Assembly (NCBI GenBank): GCA_027624715.1
Contig: JAQBTV010000001.1
Span: forward strand, 75,752 to 139,751
Length of the DNA stretch: 64,000 bases
Direction of reading: 5' to 3'
Origin: Pseudomonadota bacterium
GTDB lineage: Bacteria > Pseudomonadota > Gammaproteobacteria > Burkholderiales > Eutrophovitaceae
Part shown: positions 36,671-46,601 of the stretch, piece after piece
Numbering within the stretch: position 1 is the first letter of the stretch
Layout of the letters: every line of letters starts with the position of its first letter
Notes under the pieces: generated by a model
The model's database searches: none
What the model saw: only the letters and a program-made list of their open reading frames with translations
What the model was told of the DNA's origin: nothing
Position numbers and translations under genes: made by a program

Positions 36671-37195
36671 TCATATAATCCCGACAACCCCTAACAGAGC
36701 ACCAATCGCCATTAAACTCATTAAGTGTACCCGCGACTTCCATACGACTAAAGCCACAAGTAACACACAGATCACACTCCAAGTATTCGAGATGCTTTGT
36801 ATCAAAACAAATCCAGTAGATAACAACAATCCGATCACAACCGGAGCAGAACCGACCGCAAATGATCGCACAGATAATCGATGACTATTCGCACGACACC
36901 ATCGCGTCACATAGTAAGCAAATATCGCTGACGGGATGATCATTGCCGCCGTCATGGCTATCGCCCCAACGAATCCTGCAATTTGATAGCCCAGTACGGC
37001 AACAAATAAAGCATTAGGTCCCGGAGACACTTTACCCAGCGTGATCGCTGCCAAAAACTGTTCATTTGAAAGTATCGATAGCTCATCGACAACAACGCGA
37101 TGCATGTCTGGAGCAACCGACATCACGCCACCAACAGCTAAAAATGAAAGGAATGCAAACTGACCTAAAATCGAAATCCAATCGGCTACACTCAC
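36671..37195 (-). CDS. short-chain chromate-ion-transporter (CHR) family protein, second half
   Basis: 174 aa, CHR motif GKVSPGPNALFVA. Overlaps the partner gene by 4 nt. Confidence 0.8.
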   Translation of the reverse strand: MSVADWISILGQFAFLSFLAVGGVMSVAPDMHRVVVDELSILSNEQFLAAITLGKVSPGPNALFVAVLGYQIAGFVGAIAMTAAMIIPSAIFAYYVTRWCRANSHRLSVRSFAVGSAPVVIGLLLSTGFVLIQSISNTWSVICVLLVALVVWKSRVHLMSLMAIGALLGVVGII

Positions 37196-37788
37196 AATTC
37201 AATCTCTTTCACAGCTCGTCGGTGCTTTAGTGAAAGATGCGCCCAAACACAAGAGCCTCCGCCACAAAAGAGTATTGCCCAAAATATCGGCACACGCAGA
37301 TATCCGACTAAATAGAAAACGAGTAGTACGACCAACGTGGGTATGAGCCGCCCTACTACATTGGTCTGTATGCCTGACAACAATCGCAGCGCCGTCCCCA
37401 ACGTCATGCCAACGACGACCACTGACATCCCCTTTATGGCTCCTGCGACATGCGAACCGGCCGATATTTGGTCGTAACTGCCTGCTAACGTCAAAATCAC
37501 AAACATCGGCAAAACAATCATTCCAGATAGCGCTACTAATGCCCCCTTTCTGCCAAAAAATCGATCACCTATCATCAATGCTAAATTGCATACATTTGGG
37601 CCCGGCAGAACCTGAGATAACGAAAACATCTCAAGAAACTCAGCTTGAGAAAACCATCTACGTTGCTCGACTAAATGTCTCTGCATGATGGAAACAACAC
37701 CACCAAATCCTTGTAAAGTAATTAATGAGAAAATATAGAACAACTCAAAAAGGGTACGCGGCTCTTGATTCAGATGTTTCAAAGACAT
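37192..37788 (-). CDS. short-chain chromate-ion-transporter (CHR) family protein, first half
   Basis: 198 aa, CHR motifs FGGVVSIMQ and SQVLPGPNV. Confidence 0.8.
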   Translation of the reverse strand: MSLKHLNQEPRTLFELFYIFSLITLQGFGGVVSIMQRHLVEQRRWFSQAEFLEMFSLSQVLPGPNVCNLALMIGDRFFGRKGALVALSGMIVLPMFVILTLAGSYDQISAGSHVAGAIKGMSVVVVGMTLGTALRLLSGIQTNVVGRLIPTLVVLLVFYLVGYLRVPIFWAILFCGGGSCVWAHLSLKHRRAVKEIEL

Positions 37789-39535: not shown

Positions 39536-40315
39536 CTAGAATGCGCTGTTGTAAACACCACCATCAATTAATAGGCTTTGACCGGTAATGTATCCCGCGT
39601 GAGCACTGCATAAAAAAGCACAAGTGCTGCCAAACTCATTAGGCATACCAAAACGCTTAGCTGGTATCTTTGACGCACGATCCTTAGCTACCTCTTCAAC
39701 ACTTACACCCGCAGTCTTTGCCCAATTTTGCAGACCACCCCTCAGGCGATCTGTATCGAAAAATCCAGGAAGAATATTATTAATCGTGACATTGTTATCG
39801 GCGATTGTCCTTGCCACGCCAGCTAAAAAAGCCGTCAGGCCGGCACGAGCCCCGCTCGATAGGTCTAGCCCGGGAACTGGCATTTTGACACTCATCGAGG
39901 TGATATTAATGATACGACCAAACTTTTGGTCAATCATGTGATCAACCACCTTTTGAATCAACTCAATCGGTGTAACCATATTCATCGTTACGCCGTCTAA
40001 CATGGCCTCACGATCAAGCTCTCGAAAATCCTTGAAGGGTGGGCCACCATTATTGTTTATCAGAATATCTGGTTTTGGACATGCCTCTAGGAGCTTAGCC
40101 TGCCCCTCTCGAGTAGTGATGTCCGCAATAATGGGTTTTACGGAGACCCCGGTATCTTTAACAATTTGATTTGCGGTGGCCGTGAGTATTTTTTCATCTC
40201 TACCGTTTAGTACAAGTGAAACACCAGCTTCTGCCAATGCAATAGCACAAGCTCTACCTAGACCTCGGCTCGATGCACATACAATCGCGGTTCTACCGTT
40301 AATTCCAAGGTCCAT
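39536..40315 (-). CDS. SDR-family oxidoreductase
   Basis: 259 aa with cofactor loop ASSRGLGRA and NNNGGPP. Lies 14 bp downstream of the Sel1 gene. Confidence 0.85.
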   Translation of the reverse strand: MDLGINGRTAIVCASSRGLGRACAIALAEAGVSLVLNGRDEKILTATANQIVKDTGVSVKPIIADITTREGQAKLLEACPKPDILINNNGGPPFKDFRELDREAMLDGVTMNMVTPIELIQKVVDHMIDQKFGRIINITSMSVKMPVPGLDLSSGARAGLTAFLAGVARTIADNNVTINNILPGFFDTDRLRGGLQNWAKTAGVSVEEVAKDRASKIPAKRFGMPNEFGSTCAFLCSAHAGYITGQSLLIDGGVYNSAF

Positions 40316-40329
40316 CTTTCATCCTCCTA

Positions 40330-40887
40330 TTAAAATTTTTGTCTACTAGTACGTTGATTCTGAAAAAAAAATTCATTGAGCCAGATTTGTGCCTGTTCAC
40401 GTGCTTTTATAAGAGCATTCTGGTCCATCCTTTGACTCAACAAGTTAGCTTGGAACTTTGCATTCTCATCAAAGTTAACCGTACTCGCTAATAATAGCCA
40501 CCGATAGGCCTCTATATCGTTAGCCTCGCCAAGACGACCGCTCTTATAGAGCATGCCAAGATTGAACATCGCATATGCATAACCATTGTTAGCCGACTGC
40601 AGAAACCATGCCGCAGCCTCATCTGAGCGAGCCTCACCTAGATCACCGTCCCGATACATGATACCCAATCCATTTTGAGCTCTCGGGTGGCCAAGAGCCC
40701 CAACACGCGTCCAATGTTTTTCAGCGCCAGCGTAATCTTTTTTTACAAAAGCCTCATATCCAAGATCAAATATATCTTCAGCGTTATCCGCGTGTCCGGC
40801 ACCAGACAAAACGAGCGTAAAGCTAATACACACAAGAATTTTAAGGACACGCCTCACCTTGAATAAACATTGGTCAATTAATTTCAC
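40330..40887 (-). CDS. secreted Sel1-repeat (SLR/TPR-like) protein
   Basis: 185 aa with a signal peptide (ILVCISFTLVLSGAGHA) and three or more Sel1 repeats (A...W...A...GH..AQ..LG.MY..G). Its start overlaps the queE stop by 4 nt. Confidence 0.8.
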   Translation of the reverse strand: MKLIDQCLFKVRRVLKILVCISFTLVLSGAGHADNAEDIFDLGYEAFVKKDYAGAEKHWTRVGALGHPRAQNGLGIMYRDGDLGEARSDEAAAWFLQSANNGYAYAMFNLGMLYKSGRLGEANDIEAYRWLLLASTVNFDENAKFQANLLSQRMDQNALIKAREQAQIWLNEFFFQNQRTSRQKF

Positions 40888-41519
40888 GGCACACCAATCA
40901 TTTTATGAATTTGTAGACCTAGTCGCCACCTAGGATTTTCTTTGCAAAATTGAATTGAGCGTTCGATATTCAATTCAATGTCCGGTCCATCCTTAGGTTG
41001 TATAAAAAAATGCTCAAAATTCCACGATAAGAATTGCGCGGGATCATTACCAACCTGAGGATAAACTAGTTTTAGCTCATTCCCTTGTTTCACATGAACT
41101 GGCACCATTCCCTTGGGGCTCACACATACCCAATCAACACCTTCGGGAACGGGTATCGTACCATTTGTCTCAATAGCAACTTCAAAACCTCTGTTATGAA
41201 ATGCTCTAATCAAGTTGTGATCCAGCTGCAACAATGGTTCGCCCCCCGTGCACACTACGTATCGACGGGTATGATTACGAGACGGCCACTGACTCTCAAC
41301 TAAATCAACTAATACCTCAGGAGAGTCATATTTGCCACCGTTTACGCCATCCGTGCCCACAAAATCGGTGTCACAAAATTGGCAGTCCGCCGATAATCGA
41401 TCTTCTTCACGACCCGACCACAAATTACAACCGGCGAATCGACAAAATACAGCTGCCCGACCACTTTGAGCGCCCTCTCCCTGTATCGTGTAAAAAATTT
41501 CCTTAACTGAATATATCAT
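40884..41519 (-). CDS. queE: 7-carboxy-7-deazaguanine synthase (radical SAM, Burkholderia-type)
   Basis: 211 aa, nearly collinear with B. multivorans QueE (YSVKEIFYTIQGEG, CRFAGCNLWSGREEDR...CQFCDTDF, CTGGEPLLQ, WRLGLQIHK). Confidence 0.93.
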   Translation of the reverse strand: MIYSVKEIFYTIQGEGAQSGRAAVFCRFAGCNLWSGREEDRLSADCQFCDTDFVGTDGVNGGKYDSPEVLVDLVESQWPSRNHTRRYVVCTGGEPLLQLDHNLIRAFHNRGFEVAIETNGTIPVPEGVDWVCVSPKGMVPVHVKQGNELKLVYPQVGNDPAQFLSWNFEHFFIQPKDGPDIELNIERSIQFCKENPRWRLGLQIHKMIGVP

Positions 41520-41520
41520 G

Positions 41521-42612
41521 TCAAATAGGCATTGCTGGCCCTAAAGATCCCCAATCTATAATGACGCCACAACCTCTAGTCTCGTAAAAATCAATTCGTT
41601 CAAGTTCTGGAAGACAAGTACTGCAGCTTTTTTTGATCCATCTCGCAATACTCAACGGATCATTATCCGGCAAATCGACAATCTCATAAAGCGGTTGATG
41701 GTCGAGCGAGGCAAATATAGGGCTGAATTTCTCCTTAATATCCCCGTAATCTATAGTCCAACCCAAAACTTGATCCAAAGGTGCCGTTAAATGCAACCGA
41801 CACAAATACGTATGACCGTGAATGCGCGCACGCTCATCGCTAGAGCCGACCCGTTCACGTCGAATTGCACTGTCTATTGAGAAATCTTTCCAAATCCTAA
41901 AGATCGAACCGTTATAGTGAGCCCCACTTGTTGCAGTCTCATAGACTGTCACCCAACTCAACTGTGGTAATTTTTCTTTTAAATGACTCCATAACCAAAA
42001 AGAAATCATCTCACTCGTGGGATTTTCAAGGCCAGAAATATCATTGAGACAATTCAGATGTAGCATACCATGCACTTCACCCCAACAAGCCTTTAGTTCA
42101 TCGTAATCAATACCTAAATTGGATTCCTCAAGATAGCTTTTAGCGTGCAGTATTACCTCAAATCCATGTCCATGCATTCGCCCACATTTATGGCCCTCAG
42201 AAACATTAGGAAGCTGATGCGCTGACTCAAAACGAAATTTTCTCCAAACGTGCGCACACCCTTGTGCGTCTAGATGTACGCCCTCATCATGTTGACTGCG
42301 CAACCCAATAACATCAACCTTCGGAAGGTTTAGTTGCGCCAGGACATATCTTGCAATATTCTCATCTGTCGGAACCTCTACAGTCTCATTTAGATAGCTA
42401 TAGTTAAGCGAAGCACATGCGCGTATCAAGGTCGCGCGCGCGACCTCAATCTCATCACCGTTAAGCGATTCAGGATCATCAATAGCCGCTCTGACAGAAA
42501 CCTCGTAACTGTGTCCATGTAAACCCCTGGCTCTGTGTCCTACCGGAAATGTATCGATCTGACATGCCGCTTCGAACGAAGCACTTACCGTTACAAAAAT
42601 TCTTTCAATCAT
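41521..42612 (-). CDS. queD: 6-carboxytetrahydropterin synthase, three tandem QueD/PTPS modules in one chain
   Basis: 363 aa, three modules of about 120 aa each. All three carry an HGH motif (GLHGHSY, GRMHGHGF, RIHGHTY). Only module 2 has the full FESAH..HKCGRMHGH..ENPTSE..YET signature. Confidence 0.85.
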   Translation of the reverse strand: MIERIFVTVSASFEAACQIDTFPVGHRARGLHGHSYEVSVRAAIDDPESLNGDEIEVARATLIRACASLNYSYLNETVEVPTDENIARYVLAQLNLPKVDVIGLRSQHDEGVHLDAQGCAHVWRKFRFESAHQLPNVSEGHKCGRMHGHGFEVILHAKSYLEESNLGIDYDELKACWGEVHGMLHLNCLNDISGLENPTSEMISFWLWSHLKEKLPQLSWVTVYETATSGAHYNGSIFRIWKDFSIDSAIRRERVGSSDERARIHGHTYLCRLHLTAPLDQVLGWTIDYGDIKEKFSPIFASLDHQPLYEIVDLPDNDPLSIARWIKKSCSTCLPELERIDFYETRGCGVIIDWGSLGPAMPI

Positions 42613-42652
42613 TTATTTACCTTACAACCCAAACCGCCAAATTTTCGATAGG

Positions 42653-42757: not shown

Positions 42758-43552
42758 ATGGATATGCAACTTCAAGGCAAGAAAGCACTCATCACTGGAT
42801 CAACTTATGGAATCGGGTACGCGATTGCTGAATCTTTAGCAATGGAAGGGGTTGACGTCGTCATCACAGGTAGGCATCAAGAAACAGTAACCAGTGCGAT
42901 AAAAAAAATAAAAGGCATTAATTGCAAAACTAACCCTATAGGAATAAGCGCCGACTGTTCAACACTAGAGGGATGCCAAAGTGTGTTCGACACAGTACCT
43001 AAAGTTGATATCCTAATCAACAACCTAGGCATATATGAACGAAAATCATTTTTTGAAATTAACGACACGGATTGGGCTCGGCTGTTTGAAATCAATGTTC
43101 TGAGTGGAATACGTTTCACAAGATTCTACACGCCGAAAATGGTCAGCCAGGAATGGGGGCGCATCATTTTCATCTCCAGCGAGTCCGGACTCATGATTCC
43201 ACCGGACATGATTCACTATGGTTTCAGCAAAAGCGCGCAACTTAGTATTTCTCGCGGCCTCGCGATGTCGCTCAGCGGCACTGGGGTAACGGTGAACGCG
43301 TTACTACCCGGGCCCACTAGGACTGAAACTACAGAACAACAAAGACGAGACCGCGCTAACGAATGGGGCATCAGTCTCGAACAATTAGAACAAGAATTTT
43401 TTAATAAAGTTCGTCCTACATCAATTATTAAAAGATTTGCAGAAGCCAAGGAAGTTGCCCCACTGGCAGTCTACCTATGTAGCCCACTTTCCGCCCTAAC
43501 TACTGGGGCAGCCCTAAGAGTAGACGGCGGCATCGTAAATCAAATCACTTAA
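42758..43552 (+). CDS. SDR-family oxidoreductase
   Basis: 264 aa with TGSTYGIGYA, NNLG and YGFSK catalytic motifs. Confidence 0.85.
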   Translation: MDMQLQGKKALITGSTYGIGYAIAESLAMEGVDVVITGRHQETVTSAIKKIKGINCKTNPIGISADCSTLEGCQSVFDTVPKVDILINNLGIYERKSFFEINDTDWARLFEINVLSGIRFTRFYTPKMVSQEWGRIIFISSESGLMIPPDMIHYGFSKSAQLSISRGLAMSLSGTGVTVNALLPGPTRTETTEQQRRDRANEWGISLEQLEQEFFNKVRPTSIIKRFAEAKEVAPLAVYLCSPLSALTTGAALRVDGGIVNQIT

Positions 43553-43562
43553 TTCCTGCGTA

Positions 43563-44453
43563 TCAATCAACGCGGTCTTTTTTACACTCTCTCCAGGATC
43601 CTCCCTCGATCGCGTGAGTCGTGATACCCAAGTCTCCAGCGACATAACACCAAGCCAAGGTTGGATCTTCTCCCGTGGGCATTACCGTCACTAGTGCTCG
43701 GTCATACTCATTGCCAATCGAGCCAAAACTCGAGAATCCCTCTACCTTATCGAGCTGGCGAATCGCGGCGGACAGATCGGGGAAAAAAATCAATTCACCT
43801 GGTATGTCTTGATCGCTGTCTTTCCCATAGAGATGAAGCATCGGATAGTCAAACTCAGTCGCAAGCAGCGAGCCGCGCGATGAGGCATCCTTGGGTTTTA
43901 AAGCATTTAAAGATTCTATGATCCAGTGTCGGGACTCACCACTCAACAGTGTACCGTAAGCAAAAACACCAACCATTGAATCAGGAACCCGTTCGCCAAC
44001 CGCTGCTTGACTCAGCTGAAGGTCCGAAAAATTAAATCTCCTTAAGCCACGCTGAACTACCTCAAAGTAAGCTGAGGTTGGCTCAACGAAATGACACTGA
44101 CTCTCAGGCGTAACCTCATACGTCAACGCTAAAACAGGAGAGCCGTTAGGCTGTAATATGTACTTGCTAGCCCTTTGATAAACACGGTCAGATACGCCCT
44201 CCTTTAAATCAAGTGCCCGCCAACCAAAATCTCCGACTTCGAATAAAGCACCACACACGTATCCACCCAATCGCGCCTTTATATTTAAGGCACCACCACC
44301 ACGAGCTTGTGAAAACACATCGAATACTAAATCATGATCAGGCAAGAACGCCGGACCAACAGGCCTAATACAATCAGCTGGCAGTGAATGCTTGATACAA
44401 AAATGTCTCCAATCCTCATCGTCAAGATTAGAGCCGTAGGCAAAATATAACAT
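43563..44453 (-). CDS. two-domain gamma-glutamylcyclotransferase-fold protein (GGCT-like + GGACT/AIG2-like)
   Basis: 296 aa. Domain 1 has YFAYGSNL ... LDLKEGV. Domain 2 has VFAYGTLLSGE ... LDKVEGF ... EYDR. Confidence 0.75.
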   Translation of the reverse strand: MLYFAYGSNLDDEDWRHFCIKHSLPADCIRPVGPAFLPDHDLVFDVFSQARGGGALNIKARLGGYVCGALFEVGDFGWRALDLKEGVSDRVYQRASKYILQPNGSPVLALTYEVTPESQCHFVEPTSAYFEVVQRGLRRFNFSDLQLSQAAVGERVPDSMVGVFAYGTLLSGESRHWIIESLNALKPKDASSRGSLLATEFDYPMLHLYGKDSDQDIPGELIFFPDLSAAIRQLDKVEGFSSFGSIGNEYDRALVTVMPTGEDPTLAWCYVAGDLGITTHAIEGGSWRECKKDRVD

Positions 44454-44856: not shown

Positions 44857-45726
44857 ATGTTCATCAACAAATCACCTGCATATCTGCTATTCGGCTTATG
44901 GGTCCTATTCATAAGTCCGATTTTGGCTGACGACACTTACCGACCTGGAGATGAGTTTAAAGACTGCGATCAATGTCCAGTTATGGTTGTCATTCCCTCT
45001 GGATCGTTTGATATGGGGTCGCCACCCATTGACCAAGGACGTCCCTATAGTGAAGGTGAATTGCGACCTGTATTAATCTCAGAACCATTCGCTGTAGGAA
45101 AATTTGAAATTACCTACAAAGAGTGGCAAGCCTGCGTGATCGACGAGCAATGTCCCATTGTGAAGCGAGATGACTGGAGCAAAGACAGTCACCCGGCAGC
45201 GAACATTTCCTGGAAAGAAGCATTTGAATACACCAAATGGCTCTCTGAAAAAACTAATAAACCCTATAGGCTTCTCACTGAGGCTGAGTGGGAATACGTC
45301 GCGACAGGAGGTAGTAATCGGGCTCGATTTTTTGGCTTAACACCAACACAAGTCTGTGAATTTGGAAATCTTTATGACCAAACCGCACAACGAATGCTCG
45401 AGTACGGTTTGGAGGCAGTACCCTGTGACGATGGTTTTGACTTCTCTGCACCCATAGGATCATTCAAACCAAACCATTTTGGACTTCATGATACGTTAGG
45501 CAATGTTTGGGAATGGACTGAAGATTGCCAGCCAATCTTGTGGCGCAACGCCCCAGTAGATGCTTCAGCTCGCGTTGATGGCCATTGCACGCAGCGCGCC
45601 TATCGAGGCGGTTCTTGGCTTAATCACCCACCGCGATATTTAAAAATACCTGATAGGTACAAATATCTAGGTGCTCGAGAAATCGATCTAGGTTTTCGAA
45701 TTGGACTAAGCTTGATTCACCCATAA
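44857..45726 (+). CDS. secreted FGE-sulfatase (SUMF1/EgtB/PvdO) domain protein, paralogue 1
   Basis: 289 aa with a signal peptide and CDQCPVMVVIPSGSFDMGS, AEWEY, GNVWEWTEDC, YRGGSW and LGFRI motifs. Confidence 0.85.
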   Translation: MFINKSPAYLLFGLWVLFISPILADDTYRPGDEFKDCDQCPVMVVIPSGSFDMGSPPIDQGRPYSEGELRPVLISEPFAVGKFEITYKEWQACVIDEQCPIVKRDDWSKDSHPAANISWKEAFEYTKWLSEKTNKPYRLLTEAEWEYVATGGSNRARFFGLTPTQVCEFGNLYDQTAQRMLEYGLEAVPCDDGFDFSAPIGSFKPNHFGLHDTLGNVWEWTEDCQPILWRNAPVDASARVDGHCTQRAYRGGSWLNHPPRYLKIPDRYKYLGAREIDLGFRIGLSLIHP

Positions 45727-46601
45727 TGTTCAGACTCAAAAATGTATCAGGCTTAATGCTCGGGGCAAGTATCATAATATTTAGCTCCCACGTGACTGCC
45801 CAATCTACAGCTGGAGAAAGCTTCCAGGACTGCGACTCCTGCCCTAAGATGATCGTTATTCCTGCTGGACCTTATGGGTTTGGTTCGCCTCCGAACGAAT
45901 TTGGAAGCCCCTACAACGAGGGCTATGTTCTAGACATCTTCTTCAAACAACCCTTCAGCATCAGTCAATTAGAAATCACATTCTTGCAGTGGGAACTTTG
46001 TGTACAGGATGCTACCTGCCCTTCGATCGACGATGAAGGCTATGGAAGAGGCAACCAACCCGTGATGAACGTGTCTTGGGACGATACTCAATCGTATATT
46101 CAGTGGTTACGAGATAAAACTGGGAAAGCATACCGTTTACCGTCCGAAGCAGAGTGGGAATATGTAGCTCAATCTGGAACTAAACGGGCTCGATTCTTTG
46201 GCATTCCACCCGAACAAACATGTGAGTATGGCAATGGCTACGATAAAACAGCCGAACAGGAATATGAGTTCGGATGGCACATATTACCTTGCTCAGACGG
46301 TGCACCCAGCCTGTCCATAGTGGGTTCTTACAAGCCCAATCAATTTGGTGTCTTTGATATGCTTGGAAACGTATGGGAGTGGGTAGAAGACTGTCTTAAT
46401 CCGAATTGGCGACACAGTCACGCTTCGCTTGAAGGGCGCGCCTTTACGGATGGGGACTGCGATCAACGGGCATACCGAGGTGGCTCTTGGCTAACCAATC
46501 AACCCTATTACCTTAGGACAGCCGAACGCTACAAATTTTACGGTGCCAAACATATAGATCTTGGGTTTCGAGTAGCACTAAGCCTTAACGATCTAGATTA
46601 A
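45726..46601 (+). CDS. secreted FGE-sulfatase domain protein, paralogue 2
   Basis: 291 aa, collinear with paralogue 1 including all conserved Cys. The start overlaps the upstream stop (TAATG). Confidence 0.85.
   Translation: MFRLKNVSGLMLGASIIIFSSHVTAQSTAGESFQDCDSCPKMIVIPAGPYGFGSPPNEFGSPYNEGYVLDIFFKQPFSISQLEITFLQWELCVQDATCPSIDDEGYGRGNQPVMNVSWDDTQSYIQWLRDKTGKAYRLPSEAEWEYVAQSGTKRARFFGIPPEQTCEYGNGYDKTAEQEYEFGWHILPCSDGAPSLSIVGSYKPNQFGVFDMLGNVWEWVEDCLNPNWRHSHASLEGRAFTDGDCDQRAYRGGSWLTNQPYYLRTAERYKFYGAKHIDLGFRVALSLNDLD

Follow-up and report, generated by a model that had tools for sequence, protein, structure and literature searches.

A tri-modular QueD with catalytic residues partitioned among its modules and active sites probably completed across a chain dimer

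The window, by which we mean the whole 64-kb stretch of DNA that was analysed, contains on its minus strand a tri-modular queD gene (positions 41521..42612) encoding 363 amino acids followed by a stop codon. The ATG start lies at 42612, and a Shine-Dalgarno-like AAGG (42620..42623, minus strand) is found 7 nt 5' of it. The original prediction had named this open reading frame without giving its strand; its existence was confirmed by the translation, by the PF01242 and TIGR03367 matches described below and by full-length homologues of similar size (at least 120, about 364 amino acids long), and the strand is now assigned as minus. The gene is followed, 1 nt downstream, by queE, which encodes a 7-carboxy-7-deazaguanine synthase of the Cx14CxxC type (40884..41519, minus strand; TIGR04508, 335.5 bits). 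The junction of the two genes reads TGA-c-ATG and, judging from this arrangement, queE is translationally coupled to the tri-modular queD.

The same neighbourhood was found in related genomes, where queE lies directly downstream of the tri-modular queD in approximately 75 of 80 loci and queC lies upstream in approximately 40 of the 80, giving the order queC-queD-queE in about half of them. The gene therefore shows the association with preQ0 genes (queE and queC) that is characteristic of queD. We found no second PTPS gene within the 64-kb window, and a search for a preQ1 or other riboswitch upstream gave no Rfam match at the gathering threshold in the vicinity of the gene. QueD, the 6-carboxy-5,6,7,8-tetrahydropterin (CPH4) synthase that converts H2NTP to CPH4, performs the committed step in the formation of queuosine and 7-deazaguanines, and because queE and queC adjoin the tri-modular gene across the related loci, its product is presumably the CPH4 synthase of the queuosine pathway.

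The assignment of the protein to QueD (PTPS-I) was obtained at both the domain and the equivalog level. PF01242 (PTPS) matched three stretches of the open reading frame (169.3 bits, E = 3.8e-50, against a cut-off of 22.4 bits), and TIGR03367, the QueD equivalog, scored 135.9 bits (cut-off 89.25 bits). When E. coli QueD was compared with the protein by phmmer, three separate domains were recovered far beyond chance, at residues 11-95 (24.8 bits, 1e-9), 122-235 (102.3 bits, 1e-33) and 240-351 (59.3 bits, 2e-20), and all pairs of modules were homologous to one another (hhalign, at least 99.2%). The predicted presence of three tandem T-fold QueD/PTPS modules within 363 amino acids was thus borne out, and by these profile and pairwise matches each of the three modules is QueD-derived. 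The tri-modular architecture was present in at least 593 species genomes, mostly from Burkholderiales with some from Gammaproteobacteria. Our literature search, which was incomplete in its coverage, found no described tri-modular QueD or T-fold protein.

In canonical QueD, six identical subunits of 120 aa form two trimers stacked on each other, and a protein of 363 residues with three modules departs from that unimodular plan of about 120 aa per subunit. The single-chain AlphaFold2 model was compact (pLDDT 92.6, pTM 0.90) and consisted of three ββααββ units connected by inter-module turns of only 3-4 residues. Foldseek placed each module on E. coli QueD and other solved QueD structures with a TM of 0.94 and an rmsd of 1.2 Å, so that the predicted secondary structure and the structural matches both identified the modules as ββααββ T-fold units. 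The top covarying pairs included G111-W123 and D115-H121, which correspond to the junction between β4 of module 1 and β1 of module 2. From this topology, one chain would be expected to build a closed, 12-stranded, trimer-like ring. The model and the junction covariation agree with the earlier proposal that one chain mimics a QueD trimer.

The conservation of the catalytic residues was examined in 69 divergent tri-modular homologues, in 198 close homologues and in the first 120 homologues together with the window sequence. Module 2 (residues 119-236; 41905..42258, minus strand) is the catalytic module and shares 46% identity with E. coli QueD, its best matches in the PDB being 2oba and 4ntm (46-48%). 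It carries C143-G-R-M-H147-G-H149 (42166..42186, minus strand), a stretch that contains the catalytic Cys together with two of the Zn ligands and conforms to the Cx3HGH motif by which QueD is defined (PMC9894224). The third Zn ligand is H132 (42217..42219, minus strand). The pterin-recognition loop N197-P-T-S-E201 (42010..42024, minus strand), part of ENPTSE at 196-201, is equivalent to the loop containing T105/T106/E107 in rat PTPS, the role of which has been described (PMC7546909), and the anchoring Glu is E225 (41938..41940, minus strand), followed by T226. The Cx3HGH motif was invariant (69/69) in the divergent homologues, as was the Glu of the pterin loop (69/69), with H132 and the Thr of the loop each kept in 68/69; taken together, the His triad, the Cys, the Thr/Glu loop and the anchoring Glu were kept in 68-69/69. 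Cx3HGH, H132 and the pterin loop were also retained throughout the first 120 homologues and the window. Modules 1 and 3 have neither the Cys nor the first His, and only module 2 combines Cx3HGH with the N-terminal Zn His. The complete zinc His triad and the catalytic Cys predicted for this module are therefore present, and the catalytic centre is kept by module 2 alone.

At the positions of the catalytic Asp-His pair, on the other hand, module 2 of the window has L-H185-L186-N-C (H185-L186, 42055..42060, minus strand), where E. coli QueD has L-D70-H71-H-Y. The original reading of LHLNC in place of LDHH was correct for this protein but did not hold generally, since 136 of the 198 close homologues keep the His equivalent to His71; LHLNC is confined to the clade of the window and was rejected as a family-wide pattern. 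Among the divergent homologues the module 2 Asp was kept in 18/69 and the His in 24/69, and 26/69 had no His at any of the positions 185-187. In 25 of those 26 homologues both the module 2 core and the Asp-His of module 3 were intact. At the level of the family, the possibility that position 185 provides module 2 with a His of its own was rejected on account of these 26 homologues.

Module 3 (residues 237-363; 41524..41904, minus strand), whose relationship to canonical QueD was also recovered by hhalign (E = 3e-42), shows the complementary pattern. It has I250 at the position of the first His and R261 at that of the Cys, and the ENPTSE loop has been lost, while H265-G-H267, D304-H305 and E344-T345 are retained; the loss of the first His and the Cys together with retention of the Asp-His is as originally described. 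D304-H305 (41698..41703, minus strand) is the only universally conserved Asp-His pair of the chain, being present in 198/198 close homologues and, in the divergent set, in 68/69 (Asp) and 67/69 (His). The catalytic Asp-His of this QueD is accordingly found in module 3 and is absent from module 2. The first His and the Cys of module 3 were absent throughout the family. In the divergent homologues H267 was kept in 60/69, H265 in 34/69, E344 in 26/69 and R261 in 24/69; in the close family E/Q344, R261 and H265/H267 are all kept. The homologue survey that had been suggested as a check thus showed that the complementary losses in modules 2 and 3 are conserved family-wide (Asp and His in 18 and 24 of the 69 in module 2, against 68 and 67 in module 3).

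Module 1 (residues 1-118; 42259..42612, minus strand) is a degenerate T-fold module, related to canonical QueD with E = 5e-25 (hhalign). The position of the first His is occupied by C17 in the window, most family members having Arg there; A28 stands at the Cys position, N70-Y71 at the Asp-His positions and S106 at the position of the anchoring Glu. H32-G-H34 is kept, as had been noted, but it is not the only remnant, because a variant of the pterin loop (P-T-D-E-N, 81-85) is also present and the first His has been replaced by Cys. R/C17, H32-G-H34 and D83 were kept in 63-65/69 of the divergent homologues.

The solved relatives suggest how the separated residues could be brought together. Descriptions of E. 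coli QueD place the origin of His71'' in the opposite ring, with active sites that span both rings, and name His71 as a catalytic base (PMC9894224, PMC11672702); in A. baumannii QueD2, too, the catalytic His is donated by a protomer of the other ring (PMC9894224). For PTPS, the title of a reference speaks of an 'intersubunit catalytic triad'. The original statement that the Cys and the Asp-His pair are contributed by different subunits is in line with this literature. The same sources speak against the composite site that was built on it, in which modules 2 and 3 of one chain are combined, since the donor subunit of E. coli QueD sits in the opposite ring. In such a cis arrangement the module 3 Asp-His would reach the Zn and Cys of module 2 within the same chain, and the protein would be a monomeric pseudo-trimer with one site. 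The complementary conservation fits this arrangement equally well, and modules 2 and 3 are consecutive along the chain. However, the inter-module turns of 3-4 residues extend the sheet and should thereby hold module 3 in the same ring as module 2, with its Asp-His loop directed toward the ring-ring face. Modules 2 and 3 of one chain, being ring neighbours, are therefore unlikely triad partners, and we consider the cis arrangement distinctly unlikely. Since the donor of His71 in E. coli QueD belongs to the opposite ring, module 3 would be expected to complete module 2 of the partner chain, and by this analogy the composite site is most likely formed by module 2 of one chain and module 3 of the other in a head-to-head dimer. 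We assign a probability of about 0.6 to this explanation, that is, to a fused three-module QueD in which the module 3 Asp-His completes module 2 of a partner chain.

We also examined whether covariation and loop conservation bear on this pairing. Under D3 symmetry, the invariant Asp-His of module 3 meets the invariant centre of module 2 solely when the two-fold axis passes through module 1 and its counterpart (M1-M1'). Pooled covariation between the Asp-His loop and the pocket was enriched in the direction from module 2 to module 3 (p = 0.024) and, at p = 0.058, from module 3 to module 2; no enrichment was seen for any pair with module 1. P307 and Y309, which flank D304-H305, co-vary with K142 beside C143 (z = 4.2 and 3.6), at an effective number of sequences (Neff) of about 85 and with weak single-pair signals. 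The covariation weakly favours a module 2-module 3 pairing and is equally compatible with cis and trans contacts, because the two modules are ring neighbours as well. The equatorial loops of module 2 were more conserved than its opposite-face loops (p = 9e-6), and those of modules 1 and 3 were no more conserved than the opposite-face loops, so that loop conservation adds no separate indication of a conserved contact between rings. Across the divergent homologues, conservation of the Thr/Glu loop that binds pterin was limited to module 2. Canonical PTPS takes this loop from a ring neighbour; if the same holds here, its non-conservation in modules 1 and 3 has no explanation under this model.

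A different role for D304-H305 would follow if module 2 were self-sufficient with another base and the module 3 pair were structural, for example in clasping the two chains together through a metal or hydrogen bonds. Zn1 of A. baumannii QueD2, which is bound by the two His of HGH and by His68'' of the opposite ring (PMC9894224), offers a model for such a clasp, H267 is kept in most divergent homologues and H265/H267 in the close family, and His185 of the window might substitute as the base. The putative clasp partners are nevertheless less constrained than the Asp-His pair, since H265 is kept in just 34 of the 69; the 26 homologues with no His at 185-187 and the role of His71 as a catalytic base in the cited QueD literature also speak against a self-sufficient module 2, and we regard this alternative as unlikely. 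It has further to be considered that the pseudo-sites of module 1, module 3 or both were repurposed, for example as allosteric sites for a pterin or purine, or to dock QueE or channel to it, which would be compatible with the main explanation. The conserved R/C17, H32-G-H34 and D83 of module 1, the residues kept by module 3 in the close family, the nearly universal queD-queE coupling and an invariant NPTSE loop of module 2 that may face the neighbouring pocket are in keeping with this idea; the anchoring Glu is missing from module 1, however, and E344, R261 and H265 of module 3 are poorly kept in the divergent set, which makes repurposing quite doubtful. A changed chemistry, with a PTPS-family product other than CPH4, seems highly improbable: enzymes of the COG0720/PTPS family show catalytic promiscuity and are difficult to annotate from similarity alone (PMC5699537), but module 2 has the QueD-type Cx3HGH, TIGR03367 is matched above its cut-off and the queC-queD-queE context is conserved.

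Under the preferred explanation, trans completion within a dimer, three QueD modules joined by short β-hairpin turns, with one chain forming the whole ring, would have specialised after their fusion. Module 2 would have kept the Zn ligands H132/H147/H149, the nucleophile C143, NPTSE and E225 while its own Asp-His loop decayed, and module 3 would have been left without Zn site, Cys or pterin loop but with the invariant Asp304-His305. Module 1, with all of its catalytic residues gone, would provide the third set of staves of the barrel and a conserved pseudo-site (R/C17, HGH, D83). In view of the opposite-ring His71 of canonical QueD, a head-to-head homodimer is most likely the working unit. Its two-fold axis would pass through the M1/M1' pair, and the Asp-His of each module 3 would project into module 2 of the partner chain, bringing D304-H305 to C143, to give two complete active sites per dimer, compared with six per hexamer. 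The CPH4 product would then be handed to QueE, encoded by the next, coupled gene. An extended version is speculative and unlikely to hold in full. In it, the protein would represent a third, tri-modular class of T-fold enzyme whose single chain closes the barrel ring, with a split triad and sites formed solely in trans, and the pseudo-sites in modules 1 and 3 would either bind a pterin or purine effector or dock QueE so that the labile CPH4 can be passed on.

T-fold enzymes are a textbook example of active sites formed between identical subunits, and the tri-modular family may be viewed as a natural experiment in which selection after fusion left each catalytic element in one module. The conservation pattern indicates that the Zn site, the Cys, the pterin loop and the Glu have to remain within a single protomer and that the Asp-His may come from a different one. 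The family is also a clear case of subfunctionalisation, or of constructive neutral evolution, in a homo-oligomer whose subunits have been fused. For annotation, these proteins of about 364 amino acids are probably the working QueD of many Burkholderiales-type genomes and not three active enzymes fused.

Canonical QueD, a unimodular, homohexameric CPH4 synthase (E. coli YgcM/QueD, 4NTK/4NTM/3QN0; P. aeruginosa, 2OBA), shares with the present protein the fold, the Cx3HGH of module 2, the Zn His triad, the pterin loop, the Glu and the queE/queC context. It differs in that the residues of the tri-modular protein are partitioned, with the core in module 2, the Asp-His in module 3 and neither in module 1, so that each chain has at most one complete site against three per trimer, and in that the tri-modular protein is predicted to function as a dimer of chains and not as a hexamer. 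QueD2 of A. baumannii (7V0F), a low-zinc paralogue forming two stacked tetramers, also belongs to PTPS-I and catalyses the same reaction, and its opposite-ring His68'' provides a precedent for completion in trans (PMC9894224). The protein of the window is nevertheless of the Cx3HGH type, and the combination of Cx4HGH with either an extended C-terminus or an N-terminal domain (about 180 aa) that marks QueD2 is absent; 7v0f was matched weakly (E = 0.0047) and by module 3 alone. Closer in plan are two-module QueD relatives of 232-236 aa (for example P0254, P0250 and P0241), in which one module has no Cys, pterin loop or Glu but has kept its Asp-His. In these relatives, unlike in the tri-modular protein, the degenerate module is N-terminal and retains the full His triad, and in most cases the catalytic module still has an Asp-His pair itself, which makes the complementarity weaker.

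Among other T-folds, the bimodular enzymes GTP cyclohydrolase IB/FolE2, type II QueF and urate oxidase likewise have tandem modules, module-specific catalytic losses and sites at the interfaces of modules or subunits (PMC5699537). They consist of exactly two modules and have other barrel sizes, and the structural matches to urate oxidase and GCYH-IB were weak (Foldseek rmsd 9-17 Å), whereas the three modules described here should close a 12-stranded ring unaided. The T-fold reviews consulted name uni- and bimodular classes only; the tri-modular QueD is a variant beyond these classes and would widen the classification.

The tri-modular queD gene (41521..42612, minus strand; 363 aa) starts with an ATG at 42612, with AAGG 7 nt 5' of it, and its TGA stop is followed, after a single base, by the ATG of a gene encoding a Cx14CxxC-type QueE (TIGR04508, 335.5 bits). 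The Pfam model PF01242 (PTPS) matched the ORF in three stretches (E=3.8e-50), and the NCBIfam QueD equivalog TIGR03367 scored 135.9 bits (cut-off 89.25). A search of the ORF with E. coli QueD as the query returned three separate significant domains: residues 11-95 in module 1 (M1; 24.8 bits, 1e-9), 122-235 in module 2 (M2; 102.3 bits, 1e-33) and 240-351 in module 3 (M3; 59.3 bits, 2e-20). In profile-profile comparisons using hhalign, the modules were mutually homologous (probability of at least 99.2%) and matched canonical QueD with E-values of 4e-61 (M2), 3e-42 (M3) and 5e-25 (M1). Judged from these comparisons, each of the three modules is clearly QueD-derived. The three PF01242 stretches and the three E. 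coli QueD domains bear out the original prediction of three tandem QueD modules, and the motifs quoted for all modules are present as described.

An AlphaFold2 model of the ORF, built with a 37-sequence alignment, was a confident single body (mean pLDDT 92.6, pTM 0.90) with three predicted ββααββ units, in which turns of just 3-4 residues lead from the final strand of M1 and of M2 into the initial strand of the following module. In PTPS-type T-folds, the barrel of the trimer arises where the C-terminal strand of each subunit pairs with the N-terminal strand of its neighbour; a covalent pseudo-trimer requires hairpin links like those of the model. The M1-M2 junction was recovered independently by covariation, with G111-W123 and D115-H121 among the top inter-module pairs. 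Single modules superposed on P. aeruginosa and E. coli QueD in Foldseek (TM 0.94, rmsd 1.2 Å), and no PDB chain in that search gave good coverage of more than a single module; urate oxidase and GCYH-IB, which are bimodular T-folds, aligned to the model only at rmsd 9-17 Å. From the topology we infer the closure of the ring and the distances within it.

The tri-modular architecture is not a one-off. The first search gave at least 120 full-length homologues, about 364 aa long and 53-88% identical, and a relative is encoded in at least 593 species-representative genomes. Among the matches listed, the carriers were mostly Burkholderiales/Betaproteobacteria, together with Chromatiales, Competibacteraceae, Wenzhouxiangella and others, and the closest relatives of the window protein were from uncultured Burkholderiales and Betaproteobacteria MAGs (87-88% identity). 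When 1.84 billion cluster representatives were searched exhaustively, 95 matches reached E<=1e-30, and three modules were present in 70 of the best 150 matches, down to about 32% identity.

We counted the catalytic residues in 69 divergent tri-modular sequences and, separately, in 198 non-identical close homologues. Among the divergent sequences, M2 retained the first zinc His (E. coli H16) in 68, the catalytic Cys (C27) in 69, the HGH histidines (H31 and H33) in 69 each, the pterin-loop Thr and Glu (T84 and E86) in 68 and 69, respectively, and the anchoring Glu (E110) in 69. In M3 the first His and the Cys were each found in 0/69, the HGH histidines in 34/69 and 60/69 and the anchoring Glu in 26/69, and the pterin-loop residues were lost. 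The Asp-His pair (D70 and H71) showed the reverse distribution, with 68/69 and 67/69 in M3 against 18/69 and 24/69 in M2. The M3 pair was present in all 198 close homologues, and 'LHLNC', the M2 sequence in the window protein, proved to be only a clade-specific variant of a relaxed loop, M2 having the His in 136 of the 198. Positions 185-187 of M2 were without any His in 26 of the divergent sequences, and 25 of these kept both the M3 Asp-His and an intact M2 core. The complementary loss is thus conserved, and the retention by M2 of all but the Asp-His, and by M3 of the Asp-His and little else, is a family-wide rule that cannot be chance.

M1 has a conserved set of its own among the divergent sequences: Arg17 (65/69), H32 (63/69), H34 (64/69), Asp83 (63/69) and Ser106 (53/69). 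Residue 17 (42562..42564, minus strand) is Cys, in place of the first His, in the window's clade, where it adjoins the invariant H32-G-H34, and Arg in 108 of the 198 close homologues. In the window's clade a second metal site, structural in role, might be provided by the M1 Cys-His-His, and outside that clade Arg17 may fill the empty M1 site. M1 also keeps the pterin loop in a P-T-D-E-N version (Pro81 in 56/69). The equatorial loops of M1 and M3 showed no special conservation, and the Thr/Glu pterin loop was conserved only in M2 among the divergent sequences. In canonical PTPS this loop is supplied by a ring neighbour; the M1 loop (Pro81, Asp83) may form part of the lining of the M2 pocket.

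The Cys and the Asp-His pair had been expected to come from different subunits, which agrees with the PTPS triad, called 'intersubunit' by Bürgisser et al. (1995) in their title. The expectation is likewise borne out in E. coli QueD, where the catalytic His is designated His71'', the double prime denoting a protomer of the opposite ring, and in A. baumannii QueD2 His68'' from the opposite ring bridges two tetramers (PMC9894224). The composite M2+M3 site of the original prediction stands as regards the complementarity of residues, which is real and deeply conserved, but probably not as a same-chain site, since the donor sits across the ring-ring interface. Because M2 and M3 of a chain lie side by side in the same ring and the donor belongs to the opposite one, the M3 Asp-His should serve M2 of another chain. 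A second chain would be stacked head-to-head, with the M3 Asp-His of one serving the M2 centre of the other. In a D3-like particle of two identical pseudo-trimers, a real two-fold axis would pair one module with itself and swap the other two, and the axis through M1/M1' alone would place the M3 Asp-His at the M2 centre, both of them invariant; acting reciprocally, it would give each dimer two complete sites. The decayed M2 loop would then lie in the dead M3 pocket, which would account for the freedom of that loop to vary.

Pooled covariation between DH-loop and pocket (Neff about 85) was enriched from M2 to M3 (p=0.024) and from M3 to M2 (p=0.058), with no enrichment in any pair involving M1. 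The strongest pairs joined K142, beside the catalytic Cys143, to P307 (z 4.2) and Y309 (z 3.6), residues flanking Asp304-His305. The pooled signal is in modest agreement with an M1/M1'-axis dimer but would fit cis or trans contacts equally. A composite site formed in trans by two chains is the most likely arrangement, ahead of one formed within a single chain, and we give the full mechanism, with trans M2/M3 sites in a head-to-head dimer, a probability of about 0.6.

No second PTPS gene was found within the 64-kb window. In related loci of reference genomes, queE lies immediately 3' of the tri-modular queD in about 75 of 80 and queC immediately 5' in about 40 of 80. Since M2 contains the Cx3HGH motif used to define QueD (PMC9894224) and the gene stands in a queE/queC context, the protein is assigned as the CPH4 synthase of the preQ0/queuosine pathway; homologues are already named '6-carboxytetrahydropterin synthase' in databases. 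The other neighbours are unrelated housekeeping genes (gshA, hisD, murI, and genes for two SDRs, a Sel1-repeat protein, a two-domain GGACT protein and transporters). The Sel1-repeat gene (40330..40887, minus strand; 185 aa) shares 4 nt with the end of queE and is not known to be connected with queuosine synthesis; its position directly 3' of queD-queE is conserved in the 13 closest loci (L001-L013). Two SDR-family oxidoreductase genes (39536..40315, minus strand, and 42758..43552, plus strand; mutual identity 30%) flank the queD-queE-sel1 unit and are both syntenic in close relatives. Also syntenic there with the queD locus is a gene (43563..44453, minus strand) for a 296-aa protein of two tandem GGACT/AIG2-like (gamma-glutamyl cyclotransferase) domains with no NCBIfam match; gshA is about 4 kb away. 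Farther out are adjacent PvdO/formylglycine-generating-enzyme-like paralogues (44857..45726 and 45726..46601, plus strand), both well under the PvdO cut-off, and overlapping short half-size chromate-transporter (CHR) genes (36671..37195 and 37192..37788, minus strand), each corresponding to one half of full-length ChrA.

The tri-modular protein agrees with QueD in sequence, motif and context. QueD2 was ruled out by its Cx4HGH motif, and a bimodular T-fold by the presence of three modules. A pathway review recognises just two classes of T-fold enzyme, unimodular and bimodular, with QueD a unimodular homohexamer (PMC5699537), and the present protein departs from that architecture. Neither a tri-modular T-fold nor a tri-modular QueD was found described in the literature covered, which was incomplete, and a large PF01242 SSN study (PMC9894224) may include such proteins uncommented; a covalent pseudo-trimer with its catalytic triad split between modules appears to be undescribed. 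The cluster-representative search also revealed a separate two-module QueD class of 232-236 aa (P0254, P0250, P0241, P0244, P0263 and P0232), in which a complete QueD forms the C-terminal module and the N-terminal one has retained the His triad and Asp-His but not the Cys, the pterin loop or the Glu. Because this class also exists, module fusion with partial decay seems to have occurred more than once in the QueD family. The enzyme and its pathway are ordinary, and a pseudo-trimer with a split triad is mechanistically instructive.
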